This document shows, piece by piece, positions 7,163 to 50,713 of a DNA stretch of 64,000 nucleotides (position 1 is its first letter; every line of letters begins with the position of its first letter). The translations under genes were made by a program, and so were the position numbers. Below the pieces are notes generated by a model, which saw only the letters and a program-made list of their open reading frames with translations, was not told the DNA's origin and searched no databases. The stretch comes from Vitreimonas sp. (GTDB lineage Bacteria > Patescibacteriota > Microgenomatia > UBA1400 > PJMF01), in the NCBI GenBank assembly GCA_035627515.1, contig DASPLQ010000012.1, positions 327,269 through 391,268 of the forward strand, written 5' to 3'.

Positions 7163-7169
7163 ACACTGG

Positions 7170-14966: not shown

Positions 14967-14987
14967 TAACTAACGCTGACACCATTT

Positions 14988-16103
14988 ATGATAACTGCCC
15001 ACCCCACCCCCAAATCTCTTGTTGCTGTGAGCTGTGGTTTACTCATCGCTAGTGTGGTGGCCGGAACATTTGTCAATTCATTTGGTCTTAAAACGAGTTG
15101 GGCTCAGGTGGCTGAACCCACCCCAATTGCTGTCCCTACCACTACTGAAGTACCTGGTATGGCTGATCCTACTGACGTCCATAGCCTGACCGCAATTCCT
15201 CCCCGGTTGGGTGAAAACCGCGAACTCAAAGCCAAGCCTGGTGAGACGATTCAAGCCGTAGTCCGTGTCCGTAACGGCAGTAACAAACCCATTTTTATTA
15301 AAACCAGTGCCCAAGATTTTATCTTGAGTGAAGATGGCCAAACTCCTATTCCTGTCCAAGATAATGTTTCTAACCGCTGGAGTTTAGCTTCATGGATGAC
15401 ATTGTCGACCACTTCACAGCGCTTAGGCCCTAACCAATCAGGGAATGTTAACGTCGTCATCACCGTACCCGCCGATGCCCTGCCTGGTGGTCACTACGCG
15501 ATGGTGATGCACGAGCCCACCACTGCTCCTGCACCAGCTGGAAGCGAAGAAGCGACTGCTAAATCTGCAGCTTTAGTTTCACAACGCGTCGGTACGCTGC
15601 TCTATTTCGAAGTTGAAGGCCCGATCAATGAAGCTGCTTTTGTACGCAACTTCTCGATGCCCAAATTTACTGAGTATGGTCCAGTGCCTTTCAAGTTTAC
15701 CGTCGAAAATATGTCTGATATCCACATCCGACCTCAGGTGGGGGTAGAAATTTATAATATTTTTAATCGTAAAGTCGATACTATCGTGATCGAACCTAAG
15801 AATGTCTTCCCGTTTGTGGCCCGTGAGTTTGAGGGCAAATGGGATCGCGTCTGGGGTATTGGTCCCTATAGAGCTAAGTTAACCATGAGCTACGGCCAAG
15901 CTGGTGCAGTAGTGGTAGCTAAAACCAGTTTTTGGTTAATTCCTATTAAATTAGTCTTGGCTATAACTACTATCTTCATGTCACTGTTAGTAGTCATTAT
16001 TGCCGTCCGCCGTCACCTCTTGCATCGTCAAGATGCTGCTCAAGCCCGCATTGAGATGCTGGAAAAGAAACTTCAAGATCTTGAACACGAGCACGAGCTC
16101 TAG
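14988..16103 (+). CDS. DUF916-like cell-surface protein with C-terminal TM anchor and coiled-coil tail (second CscA-like)
   Basis: AIPPRLGENRELKAKPGETIQAVVRVRNGSNKPIFIKTS closely matches the DUF916 N-terminal pattern. C-terminal TM helix, then a charged helical tail. Confidence 0.6.
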   Translation: MITAHPTPKSLVAVSCGLLIASVVAGTFVNSFGLKTSWAQVAEPTPIAVPTTTEVPGMADPTDVHSLTAIPPRLGENRELKAKPGETIQAVVRVRNGSNKPIFIKTSAQDFILSEDGQTPIPVQDNVSNRWSLASWMTLSTTSQRLGPNQSGNVNVVITVPADALPGGHYAMVMHEPTTAPAPAGSEEATAKSAALVSQRVGTLLYFEVEGPINEAAFVRNFSMPKFTEYGPVPFKFTVENMSDIHIRPQVGVEIYNIFNRKVDTIVIEPKNVFPFVAREFEGKWDRVWGIGPYRAKLTMSYGQAGAVVVAKTSFWLIPIKLVLAITTIFMSLLVVIIAVRRHLLHRQDAAQARIEMLEKKLQDLEHEHEL

Positions 16104-16113
16104 GAGCTAGGCT

Positions 16114-18213
16114 ATGTCAGCTCGTCACCCTCGGACAGCTGCTCACCGAGTTGGCACTCTCACCACTCACTTACTTTTTGTGTTCTTTTCAGTTTTTTTT
16201 GGCTTAGGATCAGGCTTTTTAGGATTTTCTGTCCAAGCTCAAGATGGAGGGATTGGTCCAGGTGAAGATTTTTTAACTAACCCCAAAATAAGAGAAGTAA
16301 ATGTCACGGCGACTGTACCTGATAACTTGCCACCGACAGCTCCGGTCTTGATCTCCCCCAACAACAATTCCTATGTCACCATCAATAAGCCAAGTTTTGT
16401 TTGGCAAGCCTCGAGTGATGACAATGGCATTAGCCACTATAAAATGTCGCTTGATGGCGTCGATTACATCGATAACATTCCTACTACCGCGACTGATAAT
16501 GCGACGTATACGCTGACCTATAACGCCGTTTCTGATGAGTATACGCTGACGCCTAAAACTGGCCTGAGTGAAGGTACTCACACCTGGAAAATTCGCGGCA
16601 CCGATACGCTCGGCAATGGCAGTGATTCTGCTACCTGGACCTTCACCATTGATACCCAGGCTCCAGCTTTTGTGATTACCCAGCTGGGAACCGCCACCAC
16701 CAGTATTTCTAGCCAAGATATCAGTACTATTCCTAGTACACCTCTGGAACTGAGCGCAAATGAACCACTACTGGTGGGCACAGGTGAGGCCAATAGTAGC
16801 GTCCAGCTGACGGTGAGTATTCCAGATGATCCAACTCAAAATTTTAGTTTCAGCATCACAGGCAGTAGTACTTGGGAACAGCAGTTGGGGATCTTGCCTC
16901 GCGACGTCACCATCTTGCTTGATTTTGTGATCACTGACCTAGCTGGCAACGTCTCTATCTTGAGTAATGTGCCGTTTACTATTCCCAGCCCAGTGATCAT
17001 TTTCCCACCTGCCAGTGCTTCTCCTTCTCCATCCCCTACCCCCAGCCCCGCTGCCTCCACCGAGCCAGGAGCTAGCCCTTCACCCACACCAGAGGTTTTT
17101 CCTAATCCCAGTCCTTCACCTTCACCGTTGATTGTGATTCCATACATTCCGCCGCGGGAAGTGGCACACTCTTTTACTCAAGAATTAGCGGAAAACTTAA
17201 GCTTTTTGACCGATGCTGTGCCAGCTCCTATCCGAGAAACCGTAGCTGAAGTGGCTAATACCATTGCACCTACCTCTGGGCTGATTGTGGCCACCTCGAT
17301 TCCGCTAATCTCCACGGTGGCAGTGGCCTCGCAATTTGGCTGGAGTGTCTCTCCAGATCTAATCATTAAAATTCTCCAAGCGTTGGGTCTCTTACCAGCC
17401 GGAAAACCTCAAGGTTTGGTCTATGACAGTGAAACGCGCCAACCAATAGCCTTTGTAGTCTTAACTATCACTAGTCAAGATCCTGAGCACTTAATTAAAG
17501 AGACCGTGGTCACAGATGCCGATGGCGTCTATCGCGGCTTTAAGTTACCACCGGGTAAATATATCCTCGAAGCCAATCAACAAGAATATCGCTTCCCTAC
17601 CCGGCTAGCTCGCCCCCCTTACTTGAGTATGAACGACTTTTACAAAGGTGAGGTCTTTACCGTCACTCAAAATAACCAAGATCAGTTATTCTTAATTCCA
17701 ATGGATCGCCTGACAGAGTTGCCTAATGGGACGTGGAAATCAAAGGGACGAATTTTCTTAGCCCAAATTAATCGTCGTCTGCAGTTTTTAGCTCTGCCTC
17801 TGTTTCTATTCTCGGGTTTCTTGGCCTTGCTCTACCCTTCGATCTGGAATTGGCTGGTGTTTGGCTTTTATTGTTTCTTACTGGGGCGGACAGTCTTGGA
17901 TTGGTTTAAAACTCCCCAGATTACGGGCACTGCTATCGATGAGTTTGGAACCGGGGTGAAAGACGCCGTGATCCGGATTGGGTGGCCAGAAACTAACGAG
18001 CTGGTCAAGATCTTGCTGACAGATAAGAATGGCAACTTCAAAGCCTTCCTGGCGCCTGGGGAGTATCAAATGACAATCATTAAGCTGGGTTACGTCTGGT
18101 ATGAAAAAGACGCTCCGATGAGTTTGTACCAAGTCAAAGCATCTGACAAACCAGTCAACATAGTAGCAGCTCTCCGCTCCACTGAGAGCTTATATAAAGA
18201 GTTGTTTGGGTAG
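16114..18213 (+). CDS. large surface protein: signal peptide, Ig/FN3-like domain, Pro/Ser-rich linker, two TM segments, two CarboxypepD_reg-like beta-sandwich domains
   Basis: Ig/FN3-like domain (PTAPVLISPNNNSYVTINKPSFVWQASSDDNGISHYKMSLDG...) resembles the FN3-like repeats of giant protein 2. PSPSPTPSP linker. GLVYDSETRQPIAFVVLTITS...TDADGVYRGFKLPPGKYILEA and ...TDKNGNFKAFLAPGEYQMTI resemble carboxypeptidase regulatory-like domains. Confidence 0.65.
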   Translation: MSARHPRTAAHRVGTLTTHLLFVFFSVFFGLGSGFLGFSVQAQDGGIGPGEDFLTNPKIREVNVTATVPDNLPPTAPVLISPNNNSYVTINKPSFVWQASSDDNGISHYKMSLDGVDYIDNIPTTATDNATYTLTYNAVSDEYTLTPKTGLSEGTHTWKIRGTDTLGNGSDSATWTFTIDTQAPAFVITQLGTATTSISSQDISTIPSTPLELSANEPLLVGTGEANSSVQLTVSIPDDPTQNFSFSITGSSTWEQQLGILPRDVTILLDFVITDLAGNVSILSNVPFTIPSPVIIFPPASASPSPSPTPSPAASTEPGASPSPTPEVFPNPSPSPSPLIVIPYIPPREVAHSFTQELAENLSFLTDAVPAPIRETVAEVANTIAPTSGLIVATSIPLISTVAVASQFGWSVSPDLIIKILQALGLLPAGKPQGLVYDSETRQPIAFVVLTITSQDPEHLIKETVVTDADGVYRGFKLPPGKYILEANQQEYRFPTRLARPPYLSMNDFYKGEVFTVTQNNQDQLFLIPMDRLTELPNGTWKSKGRIFLAQINRRLQFLALPLFLFSGFLALLYPSIWNWLVFGFYCFLLGRTVLDWFKTPQITGTAIDEFGTGVKDAVIRIGWPETNELVKILLTDKNGNFKAFLAPGEYQMTIIKLGYVWYEKDAPMSLYQVKASDKPVNIVAALRSTESLYKELFG

Positions 18214-20461: not shown

Positions 20462-23400
20462 ATGTCTGCCCCCCTCACTGCCCCTACGAGCTTGCCTGCC
20501 CTTTGGCTGTCTTTTGTCCAAAAACAGGCCGTGAGCGAAAGCGACCAACACTTGCTCATCGGTTATGTATCTAAATTTGCCAGTAGTTTAGCCACCCCCG
20601 CCGATTGGTCTGTTGAATCTCTTACCGAGTTCTTAGCAAAAAACAATTTCAGTGAGTTATCTTTGACACAGCGTCGTACGTGGCTGAGCGAGTTTGTCCG
20701 CTCAATTTCTTCACGCCAGATTGGCGTCACCCTCTACCTTTTCGAATTAGCACTCATCAAAGGTAACTGCTCAAAAGCAACCGTCCGGAATTATCGCAGT
20801 GATATCAATCAATTTTTTGATTTCTGCCAAACTACCGAAGTCTCCGAAGCACTCACCAAACCCAAACTCCAGGCTTTTGAACAGCACCAAAGCCTGAAAG
20901 GTCTTCAACCTTCCAGTATCAAACGCAAAGTTTCTAGTATCACCCAGTTTGGCCAATGGCTGCACAAGGCTGGCTACCCCATCGAACTGGTGGTTGAGAA
21001 CCTTACCGCCGCAGAAGTTATTTCTACTCCGGTAGCAGAGGAAAAAATTGAACACGAAATTTCCTCAAGTCAACTTGAGACAGATAAATTAGCTGAGTTA
21101 TCCCTGCGCGAAGAAGTCGCTGATCTGAAAGCTCAAGTCAAAAGACAAGCCCGTGCCTGGTTCTTACCCTACTTGACCTTAGCCACCCTGATCTTGTTCT
21201 TTGCTGGTCTGGCAGTGTTTGGGTATCGCCAGTTCTTCCGCGACGTGCCTACCCCCTTGGCCTACCCCAGTAGTCCAGTCCGTGCTGATCGAGTGCTGTC
21301 CTTCCAAGGCCGCCTAACTGACACCGCTCAAAACCCGATCACCACCGCCACTAACATGACCTTCAAGCTCTTCGATTCTGGCCCTTCCATCGTGAGCGGC
21401 ACTGAGCTGTGGTCATCCGGCACTTGTAGCGTTACTCCTGATCAAGACGGTATCTTCAACGCCGGGCTTGGTGACGACTGTGGCAGCGAGATCCCTGATG
21501 ACGTTTTCACTGAGAACGCCAATGTCTGGCTCCAAGTCCAGGTGGCAGCTGAAACCCTGTCACCTCGCCAACCGATCCGGACCGTGGCCTACGCCATTAA
21601 CTCTGAGACGGTTCAGGGCTATCCTGTCACCGCCTCCGGATCAGCTACCGTCAATACCTTGCTGACTATGGACTCATCGGGTAACGTGATTTTGGGCGAA
21701 ACCTCACCGAAGCTCAAATCAGTTTCGGGTACTTTTACCCTAGAAGGCCAGACTATTAAGCTTCAAACCACTTCGGGTGGTAATGGCAATATCATCATCG
21801 ATGCCGATGGTACTGGCGGCACCTTCATCAACGATTACCTGAAGGCTCCAGGAGCTACCCTCAGTGCCACTTACGCTGGGGGCGTGCCATTGACGGTCCT
21901 CGGTGGACCAAGTGGTATGGGGAACTTAGCTAACTTCCAAAACAATGGTGGCACCAATTTACTGACCGTCGATGCCTCTGGTAATCTGAGTACAATTGGT
22001 GGGATTGGTCATTCTTTCGGAAACGTGGGTGGTAACCTGACTTTGAACTCAGCTGGGACCATCGAACTGCTTGATGCTACTAACGTCACCGGCGCGTTGT
22101 CAGCTACTGGCAACATCAACTCTTCCGGCGGCAGCTTACAAACGGGCGGCACTTCCCGCATCGACAACTCCGGAAACTTAACCAACATCGGCACCACCCA
22201 ACTCAACGGCATCACCTACACTTGGCCAGGTTCTCAAAACTCAAATTATATTCTTCAAACCAACGGCTCCGGCACTCTCACCTGGGCTGACCCAGCTGCC
22301 TTAGCTGGTGCCTCCACCTTCTGGCTTCAAAACAACGGCGCCCTCTACCCCAAGAACTCGACTGTCGATTTCTTACTCGGCGGCCAAGCTACCTCAAGTG
22401 CCAAGTTCGCTGTCTTGAACTTGAACTCTGGCACGCCAACTGCCACCTTGTCTGGAACCACCACTGGTGCTGCTTTGTACATGACTGGTGAAGGAACGTT
22501 GGCCACCACCCAGAATCGCTCACTGTTGCTTAACCCGACTGGTGGCTTTGTGGGAATTGGGACCAGCAATCCAGCGGCAAAACTGGATGTAGTCGACACT
22601 TTACGAGTAACTTCACTTGATGGCACTAACTGGAGCTCAATAAACACCACTAACGCTGGAAATAGCCGGTGGTCGTATGAGGGAAGCAGCACCTATTTAG
22701 ATTTGAACCAAAACGGGGCGATTACTGCTGGATCCAGATTTATTGTCGGCACAGCTGGAGGCACCGGCGATACCGGTGATTTGGCAGCGGGTGCAAACGG
22801 TGGCTCCCGAATAGCCTGGTTAAGAAGAGTTTCCACGAATAGACCAACTTTGGATTTTTACAACTTGAGCAACGTCCTGGTAAACAGTATTTCTGCCAAT
22901 ACAACTGATCCCACCTACTTCACCGGTGCCCTGTTTGGTATCGGGACTTCAACTCCTACCGCCTTCACTCACATCAACGGCGGCTATGGGGCTAACGATG
23001 CTTTGACTGTCAATCAAACTTTGGGTGGCAACATCTTGAGTGCGTCTTCCTCAGGGACCACACGCTTAATCCTCACCAACGGTGGACAATTGCAAGCTTC
23101 AGCAGGGACTTCTTCTGCTCCAGGCTATTCCTTCCTGAATGCCTCTGGACTTGGTTTCTACTTGACCGGGGGTAATGAAGTTTCCTTGAGTCCAGGTGGC
23201 CACGCTAATCGCCAGATCAGATTTGGTGGCGTTTCAGGCAGTAATTGGGCTGGTACCTACTTCACAAACGATAACTTTGCCACTCACGCTGGTATTGGGC
23301 GAGCCCAAGTCAGCACCACAATTAATGACGGCTTATTCATTGGTGACATTGGGGCTACTGCTACTTTACGAGGTCTAGCTATGTCCTATCTGGCTTTGGG

Positions 23401-26400
23401 CACCCAAGCTGGCAACACTGACGTCTATCTCCAACGCGACGCGGCTCAAACTTTTGGCCAACGTAATAGCACGAATGCTCAGCAATTTAATATTTACAAC
23501 ACGTACACCTCAGCTACCAACTACGAGCGAGCTGAGTTTAACTGGATTGCTAACTCCAATGTCTTCACCATTCAAACTGGTAGAGGTTCGTTGGGTGGCT
23601 CTACTCGTGACATTGCTTTACAACCGACAAGCGGAAAAGTTGGAATCGGTACGATTGCTCCGACAGCGCTACTTCATATCAACGGCGGCTATGGTGCCAA
23701 TGATGCGTTGACTGTCAATCAAACTTTGAGTGGTAATATCTTCAGTGCGAGTGCAAGCGGAACGACCAGAATGGTGCTGACGAACTCGGGTAACCTGGGT
23801 ATTGGAACTACTACTCCAAATCAGCAACTTGAAATTCAGGGTACTACTACCCCAGGCGGAGCTCTCCGTTTATCAAGCGCTGATACCACAGTCTTTACTG
23901 ACGAACATATTGGTCAAATTGATTTCTATTCTAACGATGCCTCGCTTAATGGAGTCGGAGTGGGAGCCTTTGTCAAAGCTATCGCCGAAGATAATGGCAC
24001 CCTGTATGGCTTATCATTTGGAACTGGTCAAGCTTTAGCAGGCGCTACAGAAAAACTTCGGCTGACCAATGATGGCAACTTAGGCATAATGGCTCAAGGG
24101 GACCTCCGCTTGTACGATACAGACTCAAGCAATTACTTGGCTTTCCAAGCTCCAAGTACTGTCGGCAGTAACTTAACCTACACCTTCCCTGGCAGCGTCA
24201 CCAACGGCTACGTCTTACAAACTGATGGTTCCGGTACGCTCACTTGGGCTGATCCAGCTGTTCTGGCTGGCGCCACTGACTACTGGGCTTCCAGCTTAGG
24301 CACTCTTTACCCTAAGAACTCTACGCTCGACTTCTTGTTGGGTGGGCAGGCTACGAGTAGTGCCAAGTTTGCCGTGTTGAATTTAAACTCTGGTACACCA
24401 ACTGCCACTCTCTCTGGCACCACCACCGGGGCTGCCTTGTACATGACTGGTGAAGGCACATTGGCAACCACCCGAAATCGCTCGCTGCTACTTAACCCTA
24501 CTGGCGGCAATGTCGGAATTGGGACAAGCAACCCTAGTTATAAACTTGAGGTAAATGGTCAGACAGCAATTACGCCAACTACTGGAACAGTTTTAAAACT
24601 TGGGGCAAATGTTGATTCATCTACAGCCACCCCGGTTAGTATCGATATGGGGGGAACATATAGCAATACAGCCGGACAAAACCCTAAAATCATGTTATAT
24701 AAAGCCGGGGTATTAGAATTGGGCTTTGGTTTCTCACTGAATGAGTTTGATTATATCGCGCATTCAGCGGGCACACATGTGTTTTGGTCTGGTACCACTA
24801 GAGATGCTAGAATCTATACCGATGGAGTCAGAGTACCCTCAACTAGTGGGTATATCTTCACCAGTGATACTGGTCTAGCTACACCTGATACCGGCATTGC
24901 TCGATCATCGGCAGGAGTTATTAAACTCACAAATGGTAGCTCAGGAGATGGTTCATTATATGCCGGCGGCAGCGCCAATAACTACTTTGCTGGCAACGTT
25001 GGCATCGGTACCACCGGCCCTGACGCCAAGCTCGACTCTCTCTCCACCACCGGTGAACAACTTCGCTTAACGTACACTGATGGCTCAGCTTACACAGGCT
25101 TCACTACTAACTCAGGTGGTGACTTAACCATCGTTCCATCTGGCGGCGATGTAAACATCACAGGAAACTTAGCGTTAACGGGCACTACTACTCTCAACTC
25201 TCAAACCTACACTTGGCCAGGTTCACAAACTGCTAACTACGTCTTACAAACCAATGGTTCGGGAACCTTGAGTTGGGCTGACCCAACTTCATTCGGTTTA
25301 TGGCGCCAAAGTTTGGGTGCCATCTCGCCTATCAACAACACCTTTGATTTATTAGTTGGTTCTAACGCTACCAGCTCAGCCAAGTTTGCCGTCTTGAATG
25401 TGAACAACGGTACGCCAGTGGCTTCCGTGTCATCTGGTGTTAGTGGCACAGCTCTGTCAATGTCTGCAGACGGCACACTGACTACTAGTAGTAACCGCCC
25501 ATTAGCTATCAATCCAACTGGCGGTAACGTGGGCATCGGGACAAGTACTCCAGGGGACAAATTAACTGTTCAAGATGGCAACCTTCGTTTACAACGTTCT
25601 GATACTACCAATACTCGGCTCACTAATTATTGGGGTGGCAGTACTTCATATGGAATGAGTATCGAATCTAATATTAGTTCTGCAACTGCATATTCCAATA
25701 GCTATGGCATTAGATTAGGCACCATTTTTAGTAGTTTGCCTACTTCAGGAACTTATGATCAAGTAAGAATTATTGACAGCTTTGCACCTACCTCTGGAAC
25801 AGCAATTAGTAATGCCTTCACCGTTATGCCAACCATCAACCAAACTGGTGGAGCCAATGGCATTTCTCGAGGTATTTATATTAATCCTACGTTAACTGCT
25901 GCTGCCGATTTTAGAGGTCTGGAAATTGCTAATAATAGTGGCTATGGGATTTATCAAAGTGGAGCCAGTGCAACAAATTACTTCAATGGCACCAGCGGTT
26001 TTGGCACCACCGGACCTGATGCTAAGATTGACTCCCTCTCCACCACCGGTGAACAACTTCGCTTAACCTATACTGATGGCTCAGCTTATACAGGCTTCAC
26101 TACTAGTAGTGGTGGTGACTTAACTGTCGCTCCTTCTGGCAGTGATACTAACATCACCGGCAACCTGGATGTTTCCGGCACCTTCGCCAGTGGCACCGCC
26201 AACGCCCTTACTATAGATGCATCAGGTAATGTGGTTACCACCGGCACTCTCACCGCCAACACCGATGAAACCATCAACGGTATCGATATCAACGCCGGCG
26301 CTGTCTCTGATATCACCACCTTAGCTGCCTCTGGTCAGATTACCTTCTCTACCTTCACTACTAACGGCGGTATCTTATATACCAATGGTTCCGGTGTCTT

Positions 26401-29400
26401 AGCTCAAACCAGTGTCGGCTCTTCTGGCGAGTGTCTCCAATCCAACGGTGGCGGCGCTCCAACCTGGGGTTCGTGTAACGCTACTGCCGTCAATTACTGG
26501 CGCTTAACCAATGGCGCCTTCTCCCCAGTCAATGACACAGCTGATGTGTTGATTGGCTCCACTGCTACTAGTAGTGCAAAATTTGCCTTCTTAAATGTGA
26601 ACAGTGGCACGCCAACTGCTTCAGTCTCTGCTGGCACCACCGGCGCCACCTACATCACTGCTGCCGGGTCATTACAAACCACCGCCCGCCAATCCCTCAA
26701 CTTAGGCGGCACCACCACTGGTAACACTAATGTTCTCAACACTGCTGGCACTGCCATCGCTACCTTTGATGCTACTAATAGTCGGCTTGGTTTAGGTACC
26801 ACCGCTCCTGCTAGTAAATTAGAGGTGGTTGGTGATGATATTCGCGTCAGTAGTGAAGTTGATGCCAATGATGAACAAGGAGCTGGCATTGAGTTCTATA
26901 ACACTCTAGCCCATGCCAATGCTCAAAAAGTCGTGGCTAGTATTACTCCTTCCCGCATGCATAACACTTTCGGTGGCGGTGCGTTACTCTTTAACACAAC
27001 TAATGATGGCGTGGGCGGCACTCCCACTACGCGAATGATTATTGGTACTTCTGGTAACGTGGGTATTGGTGCTACTTCCGATAGCTCTATCAACACTCGC
27101 TCCAAACTAAATGTCTTTGTGGGCAGTGGTGACGGAGTCAGAATTATTAATAGTTCCGGATCAGGTGTGGACTGGTTACTGACTCCAGGTGTGGGCGGCG
27201 TAGACCACGATCGCTTTGGCCTCTACAATGCCGATAGTTCCACTTTCATCTGGAATGCCAAACATACTGGTGACATGGGTATTGGTACTACCGGTCAAGA
27301 TGCCCGCCTTGATGTCTTAACCACCTCTGGCGAACAACTCCGCTTAACCTACACTGATGGTACTGTTTATACCGGCTTTACTACTAATAGTGGTGGAGAC
27401 TTAACCATCGTGCCATCTGGCGGTGACGTCAACATTACTGGTAACTTGGCTTTGACCGGTACCACCACTCTCAATTCACAAACCTACACTTGGCCAGGTT
27501 CACAAACTGCTAACTACGTCCTGCAAACTAATGGTAGTGGTACCTTAAGCTGGACTAACCCTCAAAACTTTGGTCTCTGGAGACAATCACTCGGCGCTCT
27601 CTCCCCAATCAATGACACTATGGATCTCTTGGTTGGTTCCAATGCCTCTAGTTCAGCCAAGTTTGCGGTGTTAAACGTCAACTCAGGCACACCAGTGGCT
27701 TCGATTTCTGCTAACTCTGGAAATATTAATACCTATCTAACAGGTAACGGCACATTAGCGACCACTAATCGTCAAAGTTTAACGATTGGTAACTCAAGCA
27801 CCTATAACACCACTGGTAATGTTTTAATTAATTCTAATGGCCAAGGCTCCGTGGGTATTGGCACTACTACTCCTTCAGAAGAGCTGCATGTGGTGGGCGA
27901 TATTTTAGCTGGAACTAGTTTCAAAATTGGTAGCACCAATACACAAATTGATAAATATGGCGGTTGGTTCAGAATTAATACCACTGGTAGTTATGGTTTA
28001 GTGATTGATAATGCTGCTGCTAGTTTGTCATATAACAGTAATTTAAATAGCACTGGCTTAGCGGGTCTCAAAGTCACTCATGCTGATACTGCTGCTTTCG
28101 CCAATATCGGAGCTTTGAATGCAGTTATTACCAATAACGCCTATATTTCAGGACGAGCCGGTGTCGGCACTACTTCACCTACTGCTGTTTTACACGTCAG
28201 TGGTGGATATGGTGCCAACGATGCGTTCACGGTCAATCAAACTAACTCAGGTAATATCTTTAGTGCGTCTGCTTCTGGCACTACTCGTTTGACGTTAAGT
28301 AACGCTGGCAACTTAATCTTCAATCAAGCTAGTACCATTCAAACCTCCACTGGTAACTTAACTTTGGATAGTACTGGCGGCACCATCGAGTTAATCGACA
28401 ACACCAACATCACTGGCAACTTGGACGTGTCAGGTACCTTTGCCGCTGGCACTGCTGATGCTCTCACCATCGATGCCTCTGGTAACGTCGTCACCTCTGG
28501 CATTTTGACTGCAGCCACCAATGAAACCATCAATGGCATCGATATTAACGCGGGTGCGGTCAGTGACATTACCACCTTAGATGCTTCAAGTACTGTCACC
28601 TTCTCCTCCTTCACCACTGATGGTGGCGTCCTCTACACCAATGGTTCGGGTGTTTTGGCTCAAACGGCGGTTGGCTCATCTGGTCAATGTCTGCAATCAA
28701 ATGGTGGCGGCGCTCCCACTTGGGGTAGTTGTACTGGTGGCGGTAGCTTCAGTAACTGGCGCTTAACTAATGGTGCCTTCTCACCTGTCAATGACACCGC
28801 TGATGTCTTGATCGGTAGCAATGCCACCTCAAGTGCCAAGTTTGCTTTCATGAATGTGAATTCTGGGACGCCAACGGCTTCTATCTCGGCTGGAACTACT
28901 GGTGCCACTTATATCACTGCTGATGGCAAACTCCAAACTACAGCTCGCCAAAACTTGAGTCTCGGTGGCACCACCACTGGTAATACTCAAGTCTTGAACA
29001 CCGCTGGCAGCGCCTTCGCTACCTTTGATGCCACCAACAGTCGCTTAGGCATTGGCACTGCTGCTCCTCTAGCTAAACTTTCTGTGGGCCCAGGAGTAGG
29101 TGAAAAACTTCATCTGTATGATGATGGAGCGGGCACCATCTATGGTATGGGTATTCAAGCTAGCTTGATGCAACTCTATGCCCCTGCTGGCTCTCGCGTT
29201 GGAATCGGTAATGGCAGTAGCGGCAGCTTTACGGAAGCTTTATCTGTAATTGATGGCAAAGTTGGTATTGGCAATACCAGTCCCAACGCTCCATTATCAT
29301 TTGCCAACGCTGTTGGTGAAAAAGTTGTGTTGTTTGACGGTGGTTCAGCTGCTACTCGCATTGGTTCTGCTATCCAGACTAATGACTTCCAACAATATGT

Positions 29401-32400
29401 GGGAGCTTCAACTAATAACTTTACCTTCCGCCAAGGTGGCCAAAATGGGACTGAGTTAATGAGATTATTAGGCACAGGTAACTTAGGAGTGGGAACCACT
29501 GGACCAGATGCTCGTATCGATTCCCTCGCTACCTCTGGTGAACAACTCCGCTTAACGTACACTGATGGCTCTGCCTACACCGGATTCACTACCAATAGTG
29601 GTGGAGACTTAACCATCGTGCCATCTGGCGGCGATGTTAACATCACGGGTAACTTGAGCTTAACTGGCACCACTACCTTCAACTCACAAACCTACACTTG
29701 GCCAGGTTCACAAACTGCTAACTACGTCCTGCAAACCAATGGTACAGGCACCTTGAGTTGGGCTGATCCTACTCAATTTGGTCTGTGGCGACAATCTTTG
29801 GGTGCCATCTCACCGATCAATAACACCTTCGATTTACTAGTCGGTTCCAATGCTACAAGTAGTGCCAAGTTTGCAGTCTTAAATGTGAACTCAGGCACAC
29901 CAACCGCCTCAGTTTCAGCCGGAACCTCTGGAGCTGCTTACCTGACTGCGGCTGGTGCGTTACAAACCACCGCTCGCCAAACCTTAAGTCTAGGTGGCTC
30001 CACCACTGGCAACACGAATGTGCTCAATACTGCTGGCACTGCCTTCACTACCTTTGACGCTACTAACAGTCGTGTGGGCATTGGCACCGCAGCACCTGGG
30101 TTCAACCTCGAAATCGCTGATGCTACTGATCCACAAATGGTGGTGACTGATACTACCAATACCGTGAGAACTCGAGTTCAATCACAAAATACGGTCGGTG
30201 TTCTTGGTACTTCTTCCAATCACGCCTTGCGCATCCAAACTGGATCAACTAACGCCATTTCTATTGATACTAGCCAATTAGTAGGTATTGGCACCACTGC
30301 ACCAGATGCCAGACTTGATTCACTTTCTACCTCCGGTGAGCAGCTCCGCTTAACCTACACCGATGGTTCAGTTTATACGGGCTTTACCACCAACTCGAGT
30401 GGTGACTTAACAGTTGCTCCTTCTGGCAGTGATGCTAACATCACCGGTAACCTCGACGTCTCTGGTACCTTCGCCTCTGGCACTGCCGATGCCCTTACTA
30501 TCGACGCCTCTGGTAACTTAGTTACTACTGGTACCTTAACTGCTAACACCAACGAAACCATTAATGGTATCGATATCAACGCTGGCGCTGTCAGTGACAT
30601 CACTACCCTCTCTGCCTCGAGTACTATCACCTTCTCAAGTTTCACCACCAACGGTGGTGTGCTCTACACCAATGGCTCTGGCGTCTTGGCACAAACTGCT
30701 GTGGGTAGTTCGGGAGAGTGTTTGAAATCAGCTGGTGCTGGCGCTCCAACCTGGGGTAGCTGTACAGCTGGGGCAGGTTCCAGTAACTGGCGCTTAACCA
30801 ATGGTGCCTTCTCACCTATCAACGACACCGCTGACGTCTTGATCGGAAGTACGGCTACTTCGAGTGCTAAGTTTGCCTTCATCAACGTCAATTCTGGTAC
30901 ACCAACTGCCTCTATCTCCGCTGGCACTTCTGGTGCTACCTACATCGCCGCTTCTGGTTTGATCCAAACCACCGCTAACCAAAACTTAACCATCGGCGGT
31001 AACACCACTGGTAACATCACCTTGGCTCCGCTCAATGGCGCTGGCACAGTCAATGTCACCGGCAACGCCGACGTCTCTGGCACGTTCGCTTCTGGCACTG
31101 GCAACGCCTTCACCATCGATGCCACTGGGAACACTGTCACTTCTGGTACTGTCACTGCTGCTACTAACGAAACTATCAACGGAGTCGATATTAACAATGG
31201 CGCCATCAGTGACGTCACTACCCTCAGTGCCTCAAGTACCATCAACACGACAGGCGGTACCATCCAAACTAACTCTACGAGTCGCATCGATAACTCGGGT
31301 AACTTGACTAACATTGGCACCACTCAATTGAACGGTCAAACCTACACTTGGCCAGGTTCTATTACTGCTGGTGGCGTCTTACAAACCTCAGGTGGTGGCG
31401 CCTTGAGTTGGGCTGATCCAGCAGGCTTCGGTCAATGGCGCTATGGCAATGGTGCCATCTCCCCAATCAACAATACTTACGATCTCTTAGTTGGTTCCAA
31501 TGCTTCCAGCTCAGCCAAGTTTGCTGTCTTGAACGTCAACTCTGGCACACCTACAGCCTCAGTCTCAGCCGGTACAGCTGGCGGTGCCTATATCACTGCC
31601 GATGGTAAATTAGCCACTACTGCCAAACAAACCTTAACGCTCGGTGACACCAATACTGGCAATGTAGTCATCCCTAGCTCCAACTTAGGCATTGGTAACA
31701 CTCAACCTTTCGCTCAATTACACTTGACCGCTACTGGAGAAAGCGGCGTTGCCCGAGGCTTACAAGTTAATGCCAACGATTTAAATACTAATGCTACCAT
31801 TACCAAATATGGCAACAATGGTGGCCTTGATCTCCGCACAGCTTGGACTGGTAACAGTAATATTACTTCTGGCATTACTCTGGGTGAAGGCAATGCCTGG
31901 AGTCCTGACATTCGCTTCTACACCGCCTTCCAAGGTGCGACCCGCAGTGAGCGAATGAGAATTACTGATATTGGTAATATTGGTATCGGAACCACTACAC
32001 CTACTTCCTTGTTCCACGTTAACGGTGGTTACGCCAACAACGCTCTCGCCACCTTCAATCAACTTAACTCCGGTGATATCCTGACCGCTTCAGCATCTGG
32101 TGCGACTCGCATGCGCTTGACCAACAACGGCAACATGATCATTGGTCCTTCCACAGCGGCTATTAACTACAACATGATCTCTCAAAGTGGCACGGCTTCC
32201 TTTGCTAGCACCAACAACGACCTCTATATCGAGGATATCCTCGAGGTCGGCGGCAGTATCGTGTTGGGTGGCAACCAATTGATGGCTAATGCCCTCTGGC
32301 AAAATAATGGTAATGTTTACTCACCAATTGGTGCTTACGGCAGCGTGGCTGACCTGGCTATCGGTGGCACTGCGACCTCGAGTGCTAAGTTCCAAATCTT

Positions 32401-35218
32401 TGGTAACAGTGGTGTGGCCAGTTCCTCTGGAACACTCACCTTCCGTGGCACTACTGATCCTAAGATCGATATCTTAAACGGTGAAAACTTCGGCATTCGC
32501 TTCAGCCCCGGTGGTGACGCCGGCGTGAGTGAGAAGTTCACTATCTTAGCCAACGGCAACGTCGGTATTGGCGACACTAACCCTGCTTCCCGCTTGAGTA
32601 TTGGTGGCTCCACCTCTAGTATCACTAACACCTCTGGAGACATCACGATTGATGCCACCAGCAACACCATCAGTTTTGCCGGTGACTTGATCACCAACTT
32701 CTCAGCTGCTCAAGGCACCAATGGTTCGACTAGCGCACCGACCTTCTCGTTCACCTCTGATACTGATACCGGTATGTACATGCCGACGATTGGTGAGTTT
32801 GGCTTCGTGACTGCTGGTGGTGAGCGAATGAGAATTGATAGTGCTGGCAAAGTCGCGATTGGCCTGACCAGTCCTACTGGTTTATTCCACGTCTCGGGTA
32901 AAGTGACGGGTAAAGCCCTAGCTATCTTCAATGAAACTGGCAATCAAGACATTATCGTCGCCTCTGCCTCTGGCACTACTCGTTTCCGCGTCGCCAATGA
33001 CGGTCACGTCTACGCTCAACGCTTCGTCGATACCAGTAGTAATAGTTTCTATCTGGACCCAGCTGATGGCACCACCAGTTTAGCCATTGCCGGTGACATC
33101 ACGCTCGATTCGGGTGGCACGATTGAATCAACGGGCAACAACAATATTGACATCGATGCTGGCTCAGGCAACGTCTTGATCGGTGGCGGTACCGGTAAAC
33201 TCGATGCCGGTACCATCGACCCTCCATACTGGATTGAAGGTAAAGGCTACGCTACCTACGTGGCTAGTATGGTGGGCTTAAATGAAGAAATTGCTTCAAC
33301 TGTGACCTTGCAACCAAGTGGTACTCCAGGCTTATACAAGTATGTGATCGATTTCCCGAACTTAAATAAAGACACTCAAACTGACTTATGGTTGTTTGGT
33401 CGTATCATCGATATGGGTGACAACATGGAGAACTTAGTGGTCTTGCTCTCTCAACACGGTTCTGGCCAAGTCATGTACAAAAAAGATGCCGCTAAACAAC
33501 AATTAATCATCTACGGCGCCGCTCCGACTGAAGTATCATTCCGCTTGACCGCGCCTCGCTTCAACCACGAGCAGTTTGGCACTGTCCGCTCTCGCCAAGA
33601 TGGCCGCGGCTTCCAACCAGTTAATCCTAATTACCAGGCTACTGGCACCGGCAGTTCCGACACTGATCTCTTAGCTAGCTTGACACAAAACCCAACTGTT
33701 TCCTTCACTGACCTAGGAACCGTGGTCATCGGTGATGCTGGCACTACAGTCACCACTGCTGATAACACAGCCGTAACTCGAGTGGAAGCATTCTGGGGAG
33801 CAGTGATTGGTCGCTTACGAGCTGGCTTAGTGGACGCACAACAATTAGTAGCCAGCATGATCGTGATCTCACCAGAGGTGAAGACTGATGTGATCACCCC
33901 GATGAACAGTGGTGACTTAGAAATTAACTTGACAGCTCCAAATGGTATCGAATCTGGTGAACTAGCGATCGTCAATCACGCTGGCGAAAAAGCTATTACG
34001 CTCGATGGTGATGGTAATATCTCAGCTTTAGGTGACTTGATTGCTCAAGACGCTTCATTCTCAGGTGAAGTAGTCGCTGAAGGCATCACCGCCACCTCTG
34101 CTCGCTTAGATCAACTCGAGTCCAAACTGGCTGAACTAGAAAGTGTCCGCGCTCAAACTGCCGAGATCATCACCGCCACTATCTCTGGCACACTCTACGC
34201 TGATAATATCGATGGCTTTGATTCCAAAGTAGCTAACGCCTTACAGCAACCAAGCTTACTCGAGCAATTGATGGGTGACGATCCAGCTGAGGCCAGCTTA
34301 TCAGCCTCGATGGCTTCTCTCTTCAACGTCATCGATGAAGCCGGCTTCACCGCCAGCGGCTCGGGTAGTTTGAACCGCTCTCTCGAGGATCTGGCTTTGG
34401 CTACCGATGACTTGAGCTTGGGCGCCACCGCCGTCTTCGTCAACAAATACTTCGAGGTCAACGGCACTGGTTACATTTCTGAGTCATTAGGAGTGGGTGA
34501 AGAAATCTTGATTGGTGAAGGTATGCGCGTCGCTGATGGTTTCATCAACTACACCTCACCAACTAACCCTGCTGCCAGTGTCTTACACTTACAACCTTCT
34601 GGCCAAGGCTCAGTCTCGATCTTGGCTGGCGCTTTGACCATCAATCAAGGTGGTCAGGTCATCGTCACTGGCGACCTGACAGTGGCCGGTAACTTGAGAG
34701 TGGAAAACACCTTGTTAGCCAGCTTGATCCAACCTACTGACTTCGCTAACCCGTTACAAGTTAAGTTAGCTACCAGATCAGGTGAGGTCAATGGTGACGC
34801 CACTGAATCAGCTCAGGTGACTGAGTCCCGCTTCGAGATCGTCAACGAGCTGGGTGTCCCAGTCGCCACCATCTCTGGCCAAGGCCGAGCCGAGTTTGCA
34901 GGTGGCTTAGGCATTGGCGCTGAAGACTTATCCGCTGCTGCTGCCAGCACCACCAGTGGCGAAGTTGCTACCCAACGTACATCTGGTAAAGCTTTGATCC
35001 CAGCTGGCTCAACTGAGATCATGATCCGCGCCACTCAAGTCACCGCTGAGTCCTTGATCCAAGTTACTCCTCAAGGCTCCACCAACAACCAAGTCATGTA
35101 CGTCAAAGCTCAAGTGGCTGATGATATTTCTACCCCAGAAAATGAAGCTCACTTCGTGGTCGGCTTCGACGCACCGTTGGCCACCGATGCCAACTTCAAC
35201 TGGTGGATCGTGAATTAG
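20462..35218 (+). CDS. giant (4918 aa) membrane-anchored surface protein: N-terminal tyrosine-recombinase core-binding (Phage_int_SAM-like) domain, one TM helix, ~4500 aa of Gly/Thr/Ser/Asn-rich beta-repeat modules, C-terminal coiled coil
   Basis: Uninterrupted 14.7-kb ORF. N-terminal ~180 aa (KATVRNYRSDINQFFDFC ... SSIKRKVSSITQFGQWLHKAGY) resembles the XerD N-terminal SAM-like core-binding domain. TM helix WFLPYLTLATLILFFAGLAVFGY. Recurrent modules follow: IGTTGPDAKLDSLSTTGEQLRLTYTDG..., TYTWPGSQTANYVLQTNGSGTLSWADP, GIGT..P...LH[VI].GGYGANDA.TVNQT..GNI.SASASGTTR. C-terminal coiled coil SARLDQLESKLAELESVRAQTAEI. Confidence 0.85.
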   Translation: MSAPLTAPTSLPALWLSFVQKQAVSESDQHLLIGYVSKFASSLATPADWSVESLTEFLAKNNFSELSLTQRRTWLSEFVRSISSRQIGVTLYLFELALIKGNCSKATVRNYRSDINQFFDFCQTTEVSEALTKPKLQAFEQHQSLKGLQPSSIKRKVSSITQFGQWLHKAGYPIELVVENLTAAEVISTPVAEEKIEHEISSSQLETDKLAELSLREEVADLKAQVKRQARAWFLPYLTLATLILFFAGLAVFGYRQFFRDVPTPLAYPSSPVRADRVLSFQGRLTDTAQNPITTATNMTFKLFDSGPSIVSGTELWSSGTCSVTPDQDGIFNAGLGDDCGSEIPDDVFTENANVWLQVQVAAETLSPRQPIRTVAYAINSETVQGYPVTASGSATVNTLLTMDSSGNVILGETSPKLKSVSGTFTLEGQTIKLQTTSGGNGNIIIDADGTGGTFINDYLKAPGATLSATYAGGVPLTVLGGPSGMGNLANFQNNGGTNLLTVDASGNLSTIGGIGHSFGNVGGNLTLNSAGTIELLDATNVTGALSATGNINSSGGSLQTGGTSRIDNSGNLTNIGTTQLNGITYTWPGSQNSNYILQTNGSGTLTWADPAALAGASTFWLQNNGALYPKNSTVDFLLGGQATSSAKFAVLNLNSGTPTATLSGTTTGAALYMTGEGTLATTQNRSLLLNPTGGFVGIGTSNPAAKLDVVDTLRVTSLDGTNWSSINTTNAGNSRWSYEGSSTYLDLNQNGAITAGSRFIVGTAGGTGDTGDLAAGANGGSRIAWLRRVSTNRPTLDFYNLSNVLVNSISANTTDPTYFTGALFGIGTSTPTAFTHINGGYGANDALTVNQTLGGNILSASSSGTTRLILTNGGQLQASAGTSSAPGYSFLNASGLGFYLTGGNEVSLSPGGHANRQIRFGGVSGSNWAGTYFTNDNFATHAGIGRAQVSTTINDGLFIGDIGATATLRGLAMSYLALGTQAGNTDVYLQRDAAQTFGQRNSTNAQQFNIYNTYTSATNYERAEFNWIANSNVFTIQTGRGSLGGSTRDIALQPTSGKVGIGTIAPTALLHINGGYGANDALTVNQTLSGNIFSASASGTTRMVLTNSGNLGIGTTTPNQQLEIQGTTTPGGALRLSSADTTVFTDEHIGQIDFYSNDASLNGVGVGAFVKAIAEDNGTLYGLSFGTGQALAGATEKLRLTNDGNLGIMAQGDLRLYDTDSSNYLAFQAPSTVGSNLTYTFPGSVTNGYVLQTDGSGTLTWADPAVLAGATDYWASSLGTLYPKNSTLDFLLGGQATSSAKFAVLNLNSGTPTATLSGTTTGAALYMTGEGTLATTRNRSLLLNPTGGNVGIGTSNPSYKLEVNGQTAITPTTGTVLKLGANVDSSTATPVSIDMGGTYSNTAGQNPKIMLYKAGVLELGFGFSLNEFDYIAHSAGTHVFWSGTTRDARIYTDGVRVPSTSGYIFTSDTGLATPDTGIARSSAGVIKLTNGSSGDGSLYAGGSANNYFAGNVGIGTTGPDAKLDSLSTTGEQLRLTYTDGSAYTGFTTNSGGDLTIVPSGGDVNITGNLALTGTTTLNSQTYTWPGSQTANYVLQTNGSGTLSWADPTSFGLWRQSLGAISPINNTFDLLVGSNATSSAKFAVLNVNNGTPVASVSSGVSGTALSMSADGTLTTSSNRPLAINPTGGNVGIGTSTPGDKLTVQDGNLRLQRSDTTNTRLTNYWGGSTSYGMSIESNISSATAYSNSYGIRLGTIFSSLPTSGTYDQVRIIDSFAPTSGTAISNAFTVMPTINQTGGANGISRGIYINPTLTAAADFRGLEIANNSGYGIYQSGASATNYFNGTSGFGTTGPDAKIDSLSTTGEQLRLTYTDGSAYTGFTTSSGGDLTVAPSGSDTNITGNLDVSGTFASGTANALTIDASGNVVTTGTLTANTDETINGIDINAGAVSDITTLAASGQITFSTFTTNGGILYTNGSGVLAQTSVGSSGECLQSNGGGAPTWGSCNATAVNYWRLTNGAFSPVNDTADVLIGSTATSSAKFAFLNVNSGTPTASVSAGTTGATYITAAGSLQTTARQSLNLGGTTTGNTNVLNTAGTAIATFDATNSRLGLGTTAPASKLEVVGDDIRVSSEVDANDEQGAGIEFYNTLAHANAQKVVASITPSRMHNTFGGGALLFNTTNDGVGGTPTTRMIIGTSGNVGIGATSDSSINTRSKLNVFVGSGDGVRIINSSGSGVDWLLTPGVGGVDHDRFGLYNADSSTFIWNAKHTGDMGIGTTGQDARLDVLTTSGEQLRLTYTDGTVYTGFTTNSGGDLTIVPSGGDVNITGNLALTGTTTLNSQTYTWPGSQTANYVLQTNGSGTLSWTNPQNFGLWRQSLGALSPINDTMDLLVGSNASSSAKFAVLNVNSGTPVASISANSGNINTYLTGNGTLATTNRQSLTIGNSSTYNTTGNVLINSNGQGSVGIGTTTPSEELHVVGDILAGTSFKIGSTNTQIDKYGGWFRINTTGSYGLVIDNAAASLSYNSNLNSTGLAGLKVTHADTAAFANIGALNAVITNNAYISGRAGVGTTSPTAVLHVSGGYGANDAFTVNQTNSGNIFSASASGTTRLTLSNAGNLIFNQASTIQTSTGNLTLDSTGGTIELIDNTNITGNLDVSGTFAAGTADALTIDASGNVVTSGILTAATNETINGIDINAGAVSDITTLDASSTVTFSSFTTDGGVLYTNGSGVLAQTAVGSSGQCLQSNGGGAPTWGSCTGGGSFSNWRLTNGAFSPVNDTADVLIGSNATSSAKFAFMNVNSGTPTASISAGTTGATYITADGKLQTTARQNLSLGGTTTGNTQVLNTAGSAFATFDATNSRLGIGTAAPLAKLSVGPGVGEKLHLYDDGAGTIYGMGIQASLMQLYAPAGSRVGIGNGSSGSFTEALSVIDGKVGIGNTSPNAPLSFANAVGEKVVLFDGGSAATRIGSAIQTNDFQQYVGASTNNFTFRQGGQNGTELMRLLGTGNLGVGTTGPDARIDSLATSGEQLRLTYTDGSAYTGFTTNSGGDLTIVPSGGDVNITGNLSLTGTTTFNSQTYTWPGSQTANYVLQTNGTGTLSWADPTQFGLWRQSLGAISPINNTFDLLVGSNATSSAKFAVLNVNSGTPTASVSAGTSGAAYLTAAGALQTTARQTLSLGGSTTGNTNVLNTAGTAFTTFDATNSRVGIGTAAPGFNLEIADATDPQMVVTDTTNTVRTRVQSQNTVGVLGTSSNHALRIQTGSTNAISIDTSQLVGIGTTAPDARLDSLSTSGEQLRLTYTDGSVYTGFTTNSSGDLTVAPSGSDANITGNLDVSGTFASGTADALTIDASGNLVTTGTLTANTNETINGIDINAGAVSDITTLSASSTITFSSFTTNGGVLYTNGSGVLAQTAVGSSGECLKSAGAGAPTWGSCTAGAGSSNWRLTNGAFSPINDTADVLIGSTATSSAKFAFINVNSGTPTASISAGTSGATYIAASGLIQTTANQNLTIGGNTTGNITLAPLNGAGTVNVTGNADVSGTFASGTGNAFTIDATGNTVTSGTVTAATNETINGVDINNGAISDVTTLSASSTINTTGGTIQTNSTSRIDNSGNLTNIGTTQLNGQTYTWPGSITAGGVLQTSGGGALSWADPAGFGQWRYGNGAISPINNTYDLLVGSNASSSAKFAVLNVNSGTPTASVSAGTAGGAYITADGKLATTAKQTLTLGDTNTGNVVIPSSNLGIGNTQPFAQLHLTATGESGVARGLQVNANDLNTNATITKYGNNGGLDLRTAWTGNSNITSGITLGEGNAWSPDIRFYTAFQGATRSERMRITDIGNIGIGTTTPTSLFHVNGGYANNALATFNQLNSGDILTASASGATRMRLTNNGNMIIGPSTAAINYNMISQSGTASFASTNNDLYIEDILEVGGSIVLGGNQLMANALWQNNGNVYSPIGAYGSVADLAIGGTATSSAKFQIFGNSGVASSSGTLTFRGTTDPKIDILNGENFGIRFSPGGDAGVSEKFTILANGNVGIGDTNPASRLSIGGSTSSITNTSGDITIDATSNTISFAGDLITNFSAAQGTNGSTSAPTFSFTSDTDTGMYMPTIGEFGFVTAGGERMRIDSAGKVAIGLTSPTGLFHVSGKVTGKALAIFNETGNQDIIVASASGTTRFRVANDGHVYAQRFVDTSSNSFYLDPADGTTSLAIAGDITLDSGGTIESTGNNNIDIDAGSGNVLIGGGTGKLDAGTIDPPYWIEGKGYATYVASMVGLNEEIASTVTLQPSGTPGLYKYVIDFPNLNKDTQTDLWLFGRIIDMGDNMENLVVLLSQHGSGQVMYKKDAAKQQLIIYGAAPTEVSFRLTAPRFNHEQFGTVRSRQDGRGFQPVNPNYQATGTGSSDTDLLASLTQNPTVSFTDLGTVVIGDAGTTVTTADNTAVTRVEAFWGAVIGRLRAGLVDAQQLVASMIVISPEVKTDVITPMNSGDLEINLTAPNGIESGELAIVNHAGEKAITLDGDGNISALGDLIAQDASFSGEVVAEGITATSARLDQLESKLAELESVRAQTAEIITATISGTLYADNIDGFDSKVANALQQPSLLEQLMGDDPAEASLSASMASLFNVIDEAGFTASGSGSLNRSLEDLALATDDLSLGATAVFVNKYFEVNGTGYISESLGVGEEILIGEGMRVADGFINYTSPTNPAASVLHLQPSGQGSVSILAGALTINQGGQVIVTGDLTVAGNLRVENTLLASLIQPTDFANPLQVKLATRSGEVNGDATESAQVTESRFEIVNELGVPVATISGQGRAEFAGGLGIGAEDLSAAAASTTSGEVATQRTSGKALIPAGSTEIMIRATQVTAESLIQVTPQGSTNNQVMYVKAQVADDISTPENEAHFVVGFDAPLATDANFNWWIVN
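22215..24540 (+). repeat. pair of ~330-nt near-identical direct repeats inside giant gene 1 (22215-22570 and 24180-24540)
   Basis: Both encode YT[WF]PGS...YVLQT[ND]GSGTLTWADPA[AV]LAGA...LYPKNST.DFLLGGQATSSAKFAVLNLNSGTPTATLSGTTTGAALYMTGEGTLATT.NRSLLLNPTGG with long identical nucleotide runs. Confidence 0.75.
24950..31500 (+). repeat. array of ~1.0-1.3 kb near-identical tandem coding repeats inside giant gene 1
   Basis: Five copies of ggtgaacaacttcgcttaac[c/g]ta[ct]actgatgg at ~25050, 26045, 27335, 29540 and 30335. Three copies of tacacttggccaggttcacaaactgctaactacgtc at ~25211, 27487 and 29693. Two module types alternate: A with TYTWPGS...LSWADP, B with TGNLDVSGTFASGTA.ALTIDASGN...ILYTNGSGVLAQT...GGGAPTWGSC. 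Confidence 0.8.
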
Positions 35219-50135: not shown

Positions 50136-50144
50136 TACTACTCC

Positions 50145-50708: not shown

Positions 50709-50713
50709 AATTA

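Follow-up and report, generated by a model that had tools for sequence, protein, structure and literature searches.

Patescibacteria, also known as the candidate phyla radiation (CPR), are ultra-small and mostly uncultured bacteria that are thought to be attached to other cells, by a mode that is largely unknown. The closest described counterparts of the fiber reported here are the mosaic adhesive trimer (MAT) proteins of Bdellovibrio bacteriovorus, which have ~1,000 amino acids (aa), a signal peptide, an unknown surface anchor and variable C-terminal tips. One of them, Bd2133 (PDB 8OND), forms an intertwined trimeric beta-helix fiber with an invariant cell-proximal N-domain, and 370 of its residues span 142–150 Å (Caulton et al., PMC10769870). 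A recombinase fold, in turn, occurs in SPbeta MrpR, a DNA-binding regulator without recombinase activity (PMC10516654). We analyzed a window of 64,000 nucleotides (nt), by which we mean the whole stretch of contig DASPLQ010000012.1 from position 327,269 to 391,268, and focused on one gene whose 4,918-aa product joins a MAT-like fiber to the core-binding (CB) domain of tyrosine recombinases. This giant protein is deposited as HYD34822.1 under the NCBI name ‘site-specific integrase [Vitreimonas sp.]’, on a contig of 1.41 Mb. On balance, we take it to be a homotrimeric, type II membrane-anchored attachment fiber of a Patescibacteria cell (CPR, Microgenomates-type), a hypothesis that fits its predicted architecture and its homology to known fibers.

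The gene is one uninterrupted open reading frame (ORF; 20462..35218, + strand), just as the initial annotation had described it. It begins with ATG and runs through 4,918 codons, none of them an internal stop, and residue numbers below refer to its product. Threonine (13.4%), glycine (13.0%), serine (10.2%) and asparagine (7.7%) together make up 44% of the protein, and the recurring modules rich in these residues that had been noticed earlier were recovered, with YTWPGS-type motifs occurring 6 times, GIGT 13 times, YTNGSG 3 times and SSAKF 10 times. Comparison of fragments of the protein against itself by BLASTP placed the repeats at residues ~497–4242, with residues 1–490 and 4250–4918 being unique. 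This repeat zone is a mosaic of at least five module types, including three super-repeats of ~740–760 aa, and the corresponding DNA repeat families have spacings of 2208–2277 nt. Several repeat units matched the Bd2133 fiber structure (8OND) in phmmer searches (E = 7.8e-7 and 4.5e-4); these units read ‘RMxIxxxGNxGIGTxxPxxxLHV’ and resemble the ‘GN(V/L)GIGTxxPxxxLxV’ beta-helix units of MAT fibers. Phage tail fibers were matched near the end of the zone, at residues 4052–4187, by phrog_18345 (E = 2.8e-17), phrog_9942 (E = 4e-10) and phrog_28766 (E = 1.3e-5), the similarity to phrog_18345 being limited to this stretch. The tail-fiber-like ectodomain proposed in the initial annotation is thus supported by the PHROG and 8OND matches, as well as by the MAT N-domain model in relatives described below, and the repeat zone probably forms a trimeric beta-helix/beta-prism fiber shaft.

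An exhaustive HMMER search with residues 1–270 against 1.84 billion cluster representatives recovered 182 representatives at E < 1e-3, mostly of 1,000–7,700 aa; 89 of them scored E < 1e-10. A word-indexed search with the first 270 aa returned no homologs, and the family was recovered only by the exhaustive search and by a query extended to take in the juxtamembrane domain. Nearly all long members (1,000–7,697 aa) among the best 150 have a common layout of one or two tandem N-terminal CB domains, exactly one transmembrane (TM) helix 60–100 residues further on, and a remainder with ~40% G/T/S/N. At least 90 of the long cluster representatives have this layout, as do 247 genomic loci that were identified by scanning a single genome for each GTDB species; neighborhoods were compared in 80 loci (L001–L080). 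Complete ORFs within the fetched flanks encode 317–3,387 aa, and representatives reach 7,697 aa. Among the 247 loci, all informatively named records are Patescibacteria (Microgenomates, Woesebacteria, Pacebacteria or ‘Patescibacteria group’), bar a few probably mislabelled metagenome-assembled genomes (MAGs) and one ‘TM6’ genome. In the latter record (L027; CP011212.1, ‘candidate division TM6 bacterium GW2011_GWF2_28_16’), whose label lies outside Patescibacteria, the complete genome opens with a 3,294-aa member (531–10415) that has the N-terminal, juxtamembrane and C-terminal modules; either horizontal transfer or a wrong label on the record could account for it.

The shaft is modular, given that relatives swap in other modules. 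Hint/intein domains directly follow the juxtamembrane domain in three of them (P0174, P0175 and P0183), and collagen repeats take the place of the beta-helix repeats in another three (P0204, P0115 and P0176), of which P0115 has 377 GXY triplets of the collagen triple-helix type and P0204, with 1,087 aa, consists of CB domain, TM helix, collagen repeats and C-terminal module. P0202 carries a Peptidase_S74 (trimerization-chaperone) domain, for which the giant protein itself had no Pfam match; S74 domains in some relatives are a further likeness to MAT fibers. Collagen and S74 are both trimer-forming modules. The gene would also share with the MAT genes a host that is a small bacterium living on other cells. 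In contrast to MAT proteins, the giant protein is 4–5 times longer and has its own TM anchor, a cytoplasmic part made of a helical bundle (N1) and a CB domain, and a conserved C-terminal module. It also differs from the phage tail fibers to which it is similar in sequence (PHROG 18345, 9942 and 28766), given that the gene is chromosomal and syntenic, the product is membrane-anchored, and no baseplate or tail genes lie nearby. The fiber part is of an already known, MAT/tail-fiber-like kind. The new elements are a TM anchor integral to the protein, N1 and CB domains in the cytoplasm, and a conserved C-terminal module together with the restriction to Patescibacteria. The domain combination, which the initial annotation had called unusual, is so with respect to the literature, but it is not unique, as it defines a large Patescibacteria family. 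We found no description of this family in the literature searched, including a preprint on giant genes (10.1101/2023.11.21.568195); coverage was incomplete, and this is absence of evidence only.

The anchor of the fiber is the sole strong hydropathy peak in all 4,918 residues (TM core, ~232–256), which an AlphaFold2 (AF2) model of residues 1–500, built from a 38-sequence alignment (mean pLDDT 75), places in a continuous helix together with a juxtamembrane amphipathic segment. Averaged over 82 long relatives, lysines and arginines together number 3.3 in the 15 residues that precede the TM helix and 0.8 in the 15 that follow it, and the N-terminal side is the more basic one in 72 of the 82. By the positive-inside rule, this enrichment supports an N-in, C-out orientation, in agreement with the single TM helix and cytoplasmic N-terminal domain read from the sequence before. 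The TM sequence is conserved among relatives (LPYLNLAxxxLFxxGLGxFGYQQF). A passive anchor is not usually conserved in this way, and the helix may therefore pack against specific partners. On the extracellular side follows a juxtamembrane beta-sandwich with strands at residues 279–372 (AF2, pLDDT ~90), which is the best-conserved part of the protein, with 62–66% identity in 76–77 of the 80 loci, and which was found in 87 of 91 long relatives. The NCBIfam model of the MAT N-domain, NF053851 (Bdello_MAT_N), was matched by 32 of 38 relatives (best E = 3e-8) and below its cut-off by the giant protein, which suggests a related cell-proximal N-domain as a possible further likeness to MAT fibers.

On the cytoplasmic side, Pfam Phage_int_SAM_1 matched residues 99–170 with 41.1 bits (gathering cut-off 22.3), Phage_int_SAM_4 was also above its cut-off (30.3 bits versus 27), and phrog_1 (integrase) matched the same stretch. 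With a four-helix bundle at residues 87–169 in the AF2 model (pLDDT ~90), the CB fold is confirmed by both profile models and structural fold, and the recombinase core-binding-like N-terminus of the initial annotation, for which an HMM check was run with a positive outcome, holds. So does its statement that a catalytic domain is lacking: Pfam Phage_integrase had no match across all 4,918 aa, and the NCBIfam XerC and XerD equivalog models scored only 43 and 37 bits, below their cut-offs of 335 and 330, respectively, and aligned at model positions 10–94. Given that these models align only over their first ~90 positions, there is no catalytic domain, and therefore no recombinase chemistry is possible. 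In an alignment of 50 members, six residues of the CB domain are invariant (T107, Y111, D114, Q117, R155 and W166 in the numbering of the giant protein), and the T, Y, D and R pair with identical residues in XerD. The domain is basic (median pI 9.5, net charge +5), with the ectodomain at pI 4.4. The invariant residues, the tandem copies and the basic pI point to selection on the cytoplasmic CB domain. Unlike XerC and XerD, with which it shares the CB fold and hallmark residues, the giant protein holds this domain tethered to the membrane, in one or two copies within the family. MrpR and phi3T SroF (PDB 9rd5) differ as well, being soluble and keeping a degenerate catalytic domain, whereas the giant protein has only the CB domain, fused to a transmembrane fiber.

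The CB domain is preceded by N1, whose four helices (residues 11–22, 26–42, 51–61 and 69–81; AF2, pLDDT ~80–90) belong to no known family and align with the N-termini of several relatives; the idea that N1 is a degenerate second CB copy was rejected (hhalign probability 0.4%). The CB domain is followed by an acidic linker that is disordered in the model (pLDDT <50 at residues 182–205) and differs in length among relatives. Foldseek with the multi-domain model of residues 1–500 was uninformative. In a separate observation, the CB profile matched chain 14 of 9i5v best among PDB sequences (E = 1.2e-5). This chain has 401 aa and carries the name ‘Ribosome-associated translation inhibitor RaiA’, yet its first ~96 residues resemble a recombinase CB domain; it would be either another non-recombinase context of this domain or a mis-named fusion.

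At the other end, the last ~675 residues of the protein show 41–45% identity over ~500 aa among relatives. This C-terminal module consists of a TIDPPY domain (residues 4251–4366), helical segments (4548–4643) and a terminal beta-sandwich (4831–4918) ending in FNWWIVN. The terminal ~100 aa with an FNWW(I/L)VN end are present in 71 of 91 long relatives, and in 68 of these 71 the match stops 0–6 residues from the C-terminus. A coiled-coil end, as the initial annotation had it, was not upheld, given that helical segments lie at 4548–4643 and the last ~275 aa are beta-rich, closing with the conserved sandwich. We also considered the FNWW(I/L)VN end as a WxL-type cell-wall-binding domain, an idea prompted by a sub-threshold WxLIP_PGBD match in the upstream operon, and dropped it for lack of Pfam support at E ≤ 0.1.

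According to the attachment-fiber hypothesis, three chains would assemble into a homotrimeric fiber, as in Bdellovibrio MAT and phage tail fibers, a stoichiometry that follows from homology to solved trimers and from the collagen and S74 modules of relatives. The chains would be exported via Sec, with the TM helix serving as signal-anchor, and the fiber would project ~150–200 nm, as scaled from Bd2133 at ~0.04 nm per residue, from a cell of similar diameter, attaching that cell to a host cell or a surface. Trimerization would gather three basic CB domains beneath the membrane, and at the fiber base these may tether or read out nucleic acid, with docking of a protein partner as the main alternative. 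The divergent PaaX-like gene next to the giant gene probably regulates its expression. Several points weigh against this hypothesis. The giant protein's own match to NF053851 had 18 bits (E = 0.002), below the cut-off of 60, and covered model positions 116–146 of 162. The structure model of the C-terminus is of low confidence, and the distal C-terminal module is conserved instead of variable, which is atypical for the receptor-binding tips of phage and MAT fibers and could mean that the module serves fiber structure or self-assembly and not the recognition of a host. Finally, a CB domain on its own, lacking the catalytic domain, might have only a weak affinity for DNA.

The CB domains in the cytoplasm are likely to interact with DNA or with another protein. 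Nucleic-acid binding is suggested by their fold, basic charge and hallmark residues and by the precedent of MrpR. DNA binding is, to our knowledge, the only known activity of the CB fold, and for this reason DNA is the most likely ligand. An otherwise identical fiber in which the CB domain is not a DNA binder but a protein-docking or assembly module seems unlikely to us, though it deserves serious consideration; it might then, for example, dock a chaperone, the export machinery or the PaaX-like neighbor, or serve to cluster fiber bases. Consistent with docking, only the CB domain was retained, and full recombinases such as Xer and lambda Int are established to need the catalytic domain as well in order to clamp DNA. 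The domain also lies ~60–100 residues from the membrane on a flexible linker, the adjoining N1 bundle has no nucleic-acid-binding signature, and a PaaX-like partner gene is nearly always adjacent.

It is slightly more doubtful still that the giant protein is mainly a structural envelope component, such as a surface layer, a spacer or a sheath fiber, and not a host adhesin. Both ends of the protein are conserved and only the middle varies in length, the conserved six-gene envelope operon and type IV pilin-like genes adjoin the giant gene within a core block of the chromosome, and there is neither a variable tip nor a diversity-generating element among the scanned ORFs of the window. However, the closest characterized relatives, MAT and phage tail fibers, are devices for recognition and adhesion, and the several-fold variation in length between species (317–3,387 aa in complete ORFs, up to 7,697 aa among representatives) would fit proteins that interact with a host better.

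An extension of the attachment-fiber hypothesis that we regard as improbable is that the protein acts as a transmembrane coupling device, in which host contact or tension on the ~150–200 nm trimeric fiber would be relayed via the conserved bundle of TM and juxtamembrane helices to three (or six) cytoplasmic CB domains that bind specific sites of the chromosome. The output would be a gene-expression switch of a ToxR- or MyRF-like kind, possibly after proteolytic release, or the positioning of the nucleoid at the attachment site of the episymbiont. ToxR/CadC one-component regulators and eukaryotic MyRF are membrane-tethered DNA-binding proteins, and MyRF, which joins a DNA-binding domain, a phage S74 trimerization domain and a TM helix, indicates that tail-fiber trimerization modules can couple to a DNA-binding domain. 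In topology, the giant protein resembles these regulators: the nucleic-acid-binding fold lies at an N-terminus in the cytoplasm, the chain crosses the membrane with one TM helix, and the C-terminus is extracytoplasmic. In contrast, there is no sequence relationship, the DNA-binding fold is another one, and the ectodomain of the giant protein is a 4,600-aa fiber and not a sensor, with no cleavage site or regulatory output known. If such coupling did take place, the family would be a new, CPR-specific class of membrane-tethered DNA-binding protein. MyRF is also mentioned in the study of the MAT fibers (PMC10769870).

That the giant ORF is an assembly artifact, with repeats collapsed or expanded or with a chimeric join, is a natural concern for a highly repetitive gene on a metagenome-assembled contig, but we consider it very improbable. 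DNA identity among repeat copies is 60–82%, and in seven well-aligned repeat pairs, protein identity is 83–90% and nucleotide identity 72–82%, so that these copies are 18–28% apart in DNA; only 14 exact 40-mers recur within the gene. Given that the copies have diverged in this way and exact 40-mers are few, collapse of the repeats by short-read assembly is unlikely. Identical residues of paired repeats are encoded by differing codons at 36–57% of positions, and as DNA and codon divergence exceeds protein divergence, the repeats are old, having evolved independently for long and under purifying selection. Moreover, relatives of 1,000–7,700 aa with conserved N- and C-terminal modules were recovered from many independent assemblies. 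Finally, although NCBI names HYD34822.1 and many fragments as site-specific integrases and both phrog_1 and tail-fiber PHROGs match the chain, a real tyrosine recombinase or integrase, or a prophage tail-fiber gene accidentally fused to an integrase remnant, is scarcely credible, given that the RKHRHY catalytic domain is absent, which refutes a recombinase for the giant protein, that the CB domain runs into a linker and a TM helix, that no phage genes were found among the scanned ORFs of the window, housekeeping genes flank the locus and synteny is kept across species, and that the arrangement and its invariant residues are conserved in >90 diverged relatives.

The family is conserved and syntenic, and its genes occupy much of the coding capacity, here 14.7 kb on a contig of 1.41 Mb. 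Judging from its sequence relationships, it resembles a cell-anchored counterpart of phage tail fibers and Bdellovibrio MAT fibers and is a prime candidate for a host-attachment organelle, and the fusion to a cytoplasmic CB domain, of which the literature searched gave no description, suggests a physical link of the fiber base to DNA or to a cytoplasmic partner. The name ‘site-specific integrase’ for HYD34822.1 is wrong, and the ‘Vitreimonas sp.’ label looks wrong given gene content and synteny. NCBI labels fragments of the family ‘site-specific integrase, partial’. Such names make mobile-element genes seem more numerous in CPR genomes than they are and obscure a major surface structure. The titles of many related MAGs read ‘uncultured Pseudomonadales’, ‘Methylococcaceae’ or ‘Limisphaerales’ despite Patescibacteria-like gene content and synteny; these titles and the integrase names are probable systematic errors of taxonomy and annotation.

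Table 1. Features of the giant gene and of its neighborhood, in window coordinates.
Feature	Residues or size	Position	Strand	Basis or remark
N1, cytoplasmic four-helix bundle	1–86	20462..20719	+	AF2
Tyrosine-recombinase core-binding (CB, SAM-like) domain	87–175	20720..20986	+	cytoplasmic, non-catalytic, basic
Acidic, disordered cytoplasmic linker	176–205	20987..21076	+	AF2; variable length
Continuous helix: juxtamembrane amphipathic segment and single TM	206–258	21077..21235	+	AF2, hydropathy
Extracellular juxtamembrane beta-sandwich	266–400	21257..21661	+	probably MAT-N-related; AF2
Mosaic repeat zone	497–4242	21950..33187	+	self-BLASTP, DNA repeat families, 8OND match
Phage tail-fiber-matching stretch	4052–4187	32615..33022	+	PHROG matches
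Conserved C-terminal module	4243–4918	33188..35215	+	conserved among relatives
PaaX-like protein	251 aa	19213..19968	-	divergent, directly upstream of giant gene
Six-gene envelope operon		10983–18213	+	synteny with giant gene in 34–51 of 80 loci
Second giant ORF	3,713 aa	35301..46442	+	immediately downstream of CB-fiber gene
Secreted protein	339 aa	47301–48320	+	motif ‘GKVLTSDANGVASWQ’
Three paralogous type IV pilin-like genes		49608–51481	-	N_methyl motif; kept downstream of giant gene
TPR protein		51538–53682		after pilin-like genes
Split ComEC, Lactamase_B part		3179–4159	-	overlaps the Competence part
Split ComEC, Competence part		4149–5228	-	overlaps the Lactamase_B part
ComEA		5658–6308	-	beside split ComEC

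The 64-kb window is cellular in content, with genes for ArgRS, LeuRS, ComEA, a split ComEC, Obg, an M23 peptidase, Rho, a sortase and a VirD4-like ATPase; the arrangement of split ComEC and ComEA recurs in related loci. Across species, the syntenic order is LeuRS, the six-gene envelope operon, the divergent 251-aa gene, the giant gene, the type IV pilin-like genes, the TPR protein and Obg, the pilin-like and TPR genes being conserved in those loci whose flanks reach that far. The giant gene is thus part of a conserved chromosomal block and not of a phage; no phage genes, baseplate or tail genes, or reverse transcriptase were found among the scanned ORFs of the window, and an origin from a prophage or mobile element was rejected on gene context and cross-species synteny.

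The most constant neighbor is the PaaX-like gene, a homolog of which lies just upstream on the opposite strand in 77 of the 80 loci. The 251-aa protein of the window itself had no Pfam match and a weak PDB profile match to 3kfw (E = 0.15); 14 of 19 members of its family matched Pfam PaaX_M (best E = 1.1e-5), and it is likely a winged helix-turn-helix transcription regulator. The envelope operon encodes a multi-TM protein, secreted beta-rich proteins, a protein with Big_13 and CarboxypepD_reg domains, and the sub-threshold WxLIP_PGBD-like protein, which has a C-terminal TM helix; a 266-aa member of this operon shows up to 73% identity across loci. The second giant ORF encodes a TM helix at the N-terminus, followed in the domain list by seven Laminin_G_3 (concanavalin-like lectin) domains and one Ig_Rha78A_N domain. 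Partial homologs follow the CB-fiber gene in some related loci (L010, L053 and L048), and the gene is absent from others, e.g., L009.

Scans of the window for tRNA genes and Rfam families found nothing, and a promoter scan of the 490-bp intergenic region upstream of the giant gene gave one weak sigma-70-like site, below chance expectation. The C-terminal half of the secreted 339-aa protein is rich in Cys and His; the protein did not match any Pfam family significantly, and its motif ‘GKVLTSDANGVASWQ’ resembles the ‘YVLQTNGSGTLSWADP’ modules of the giant fiber.

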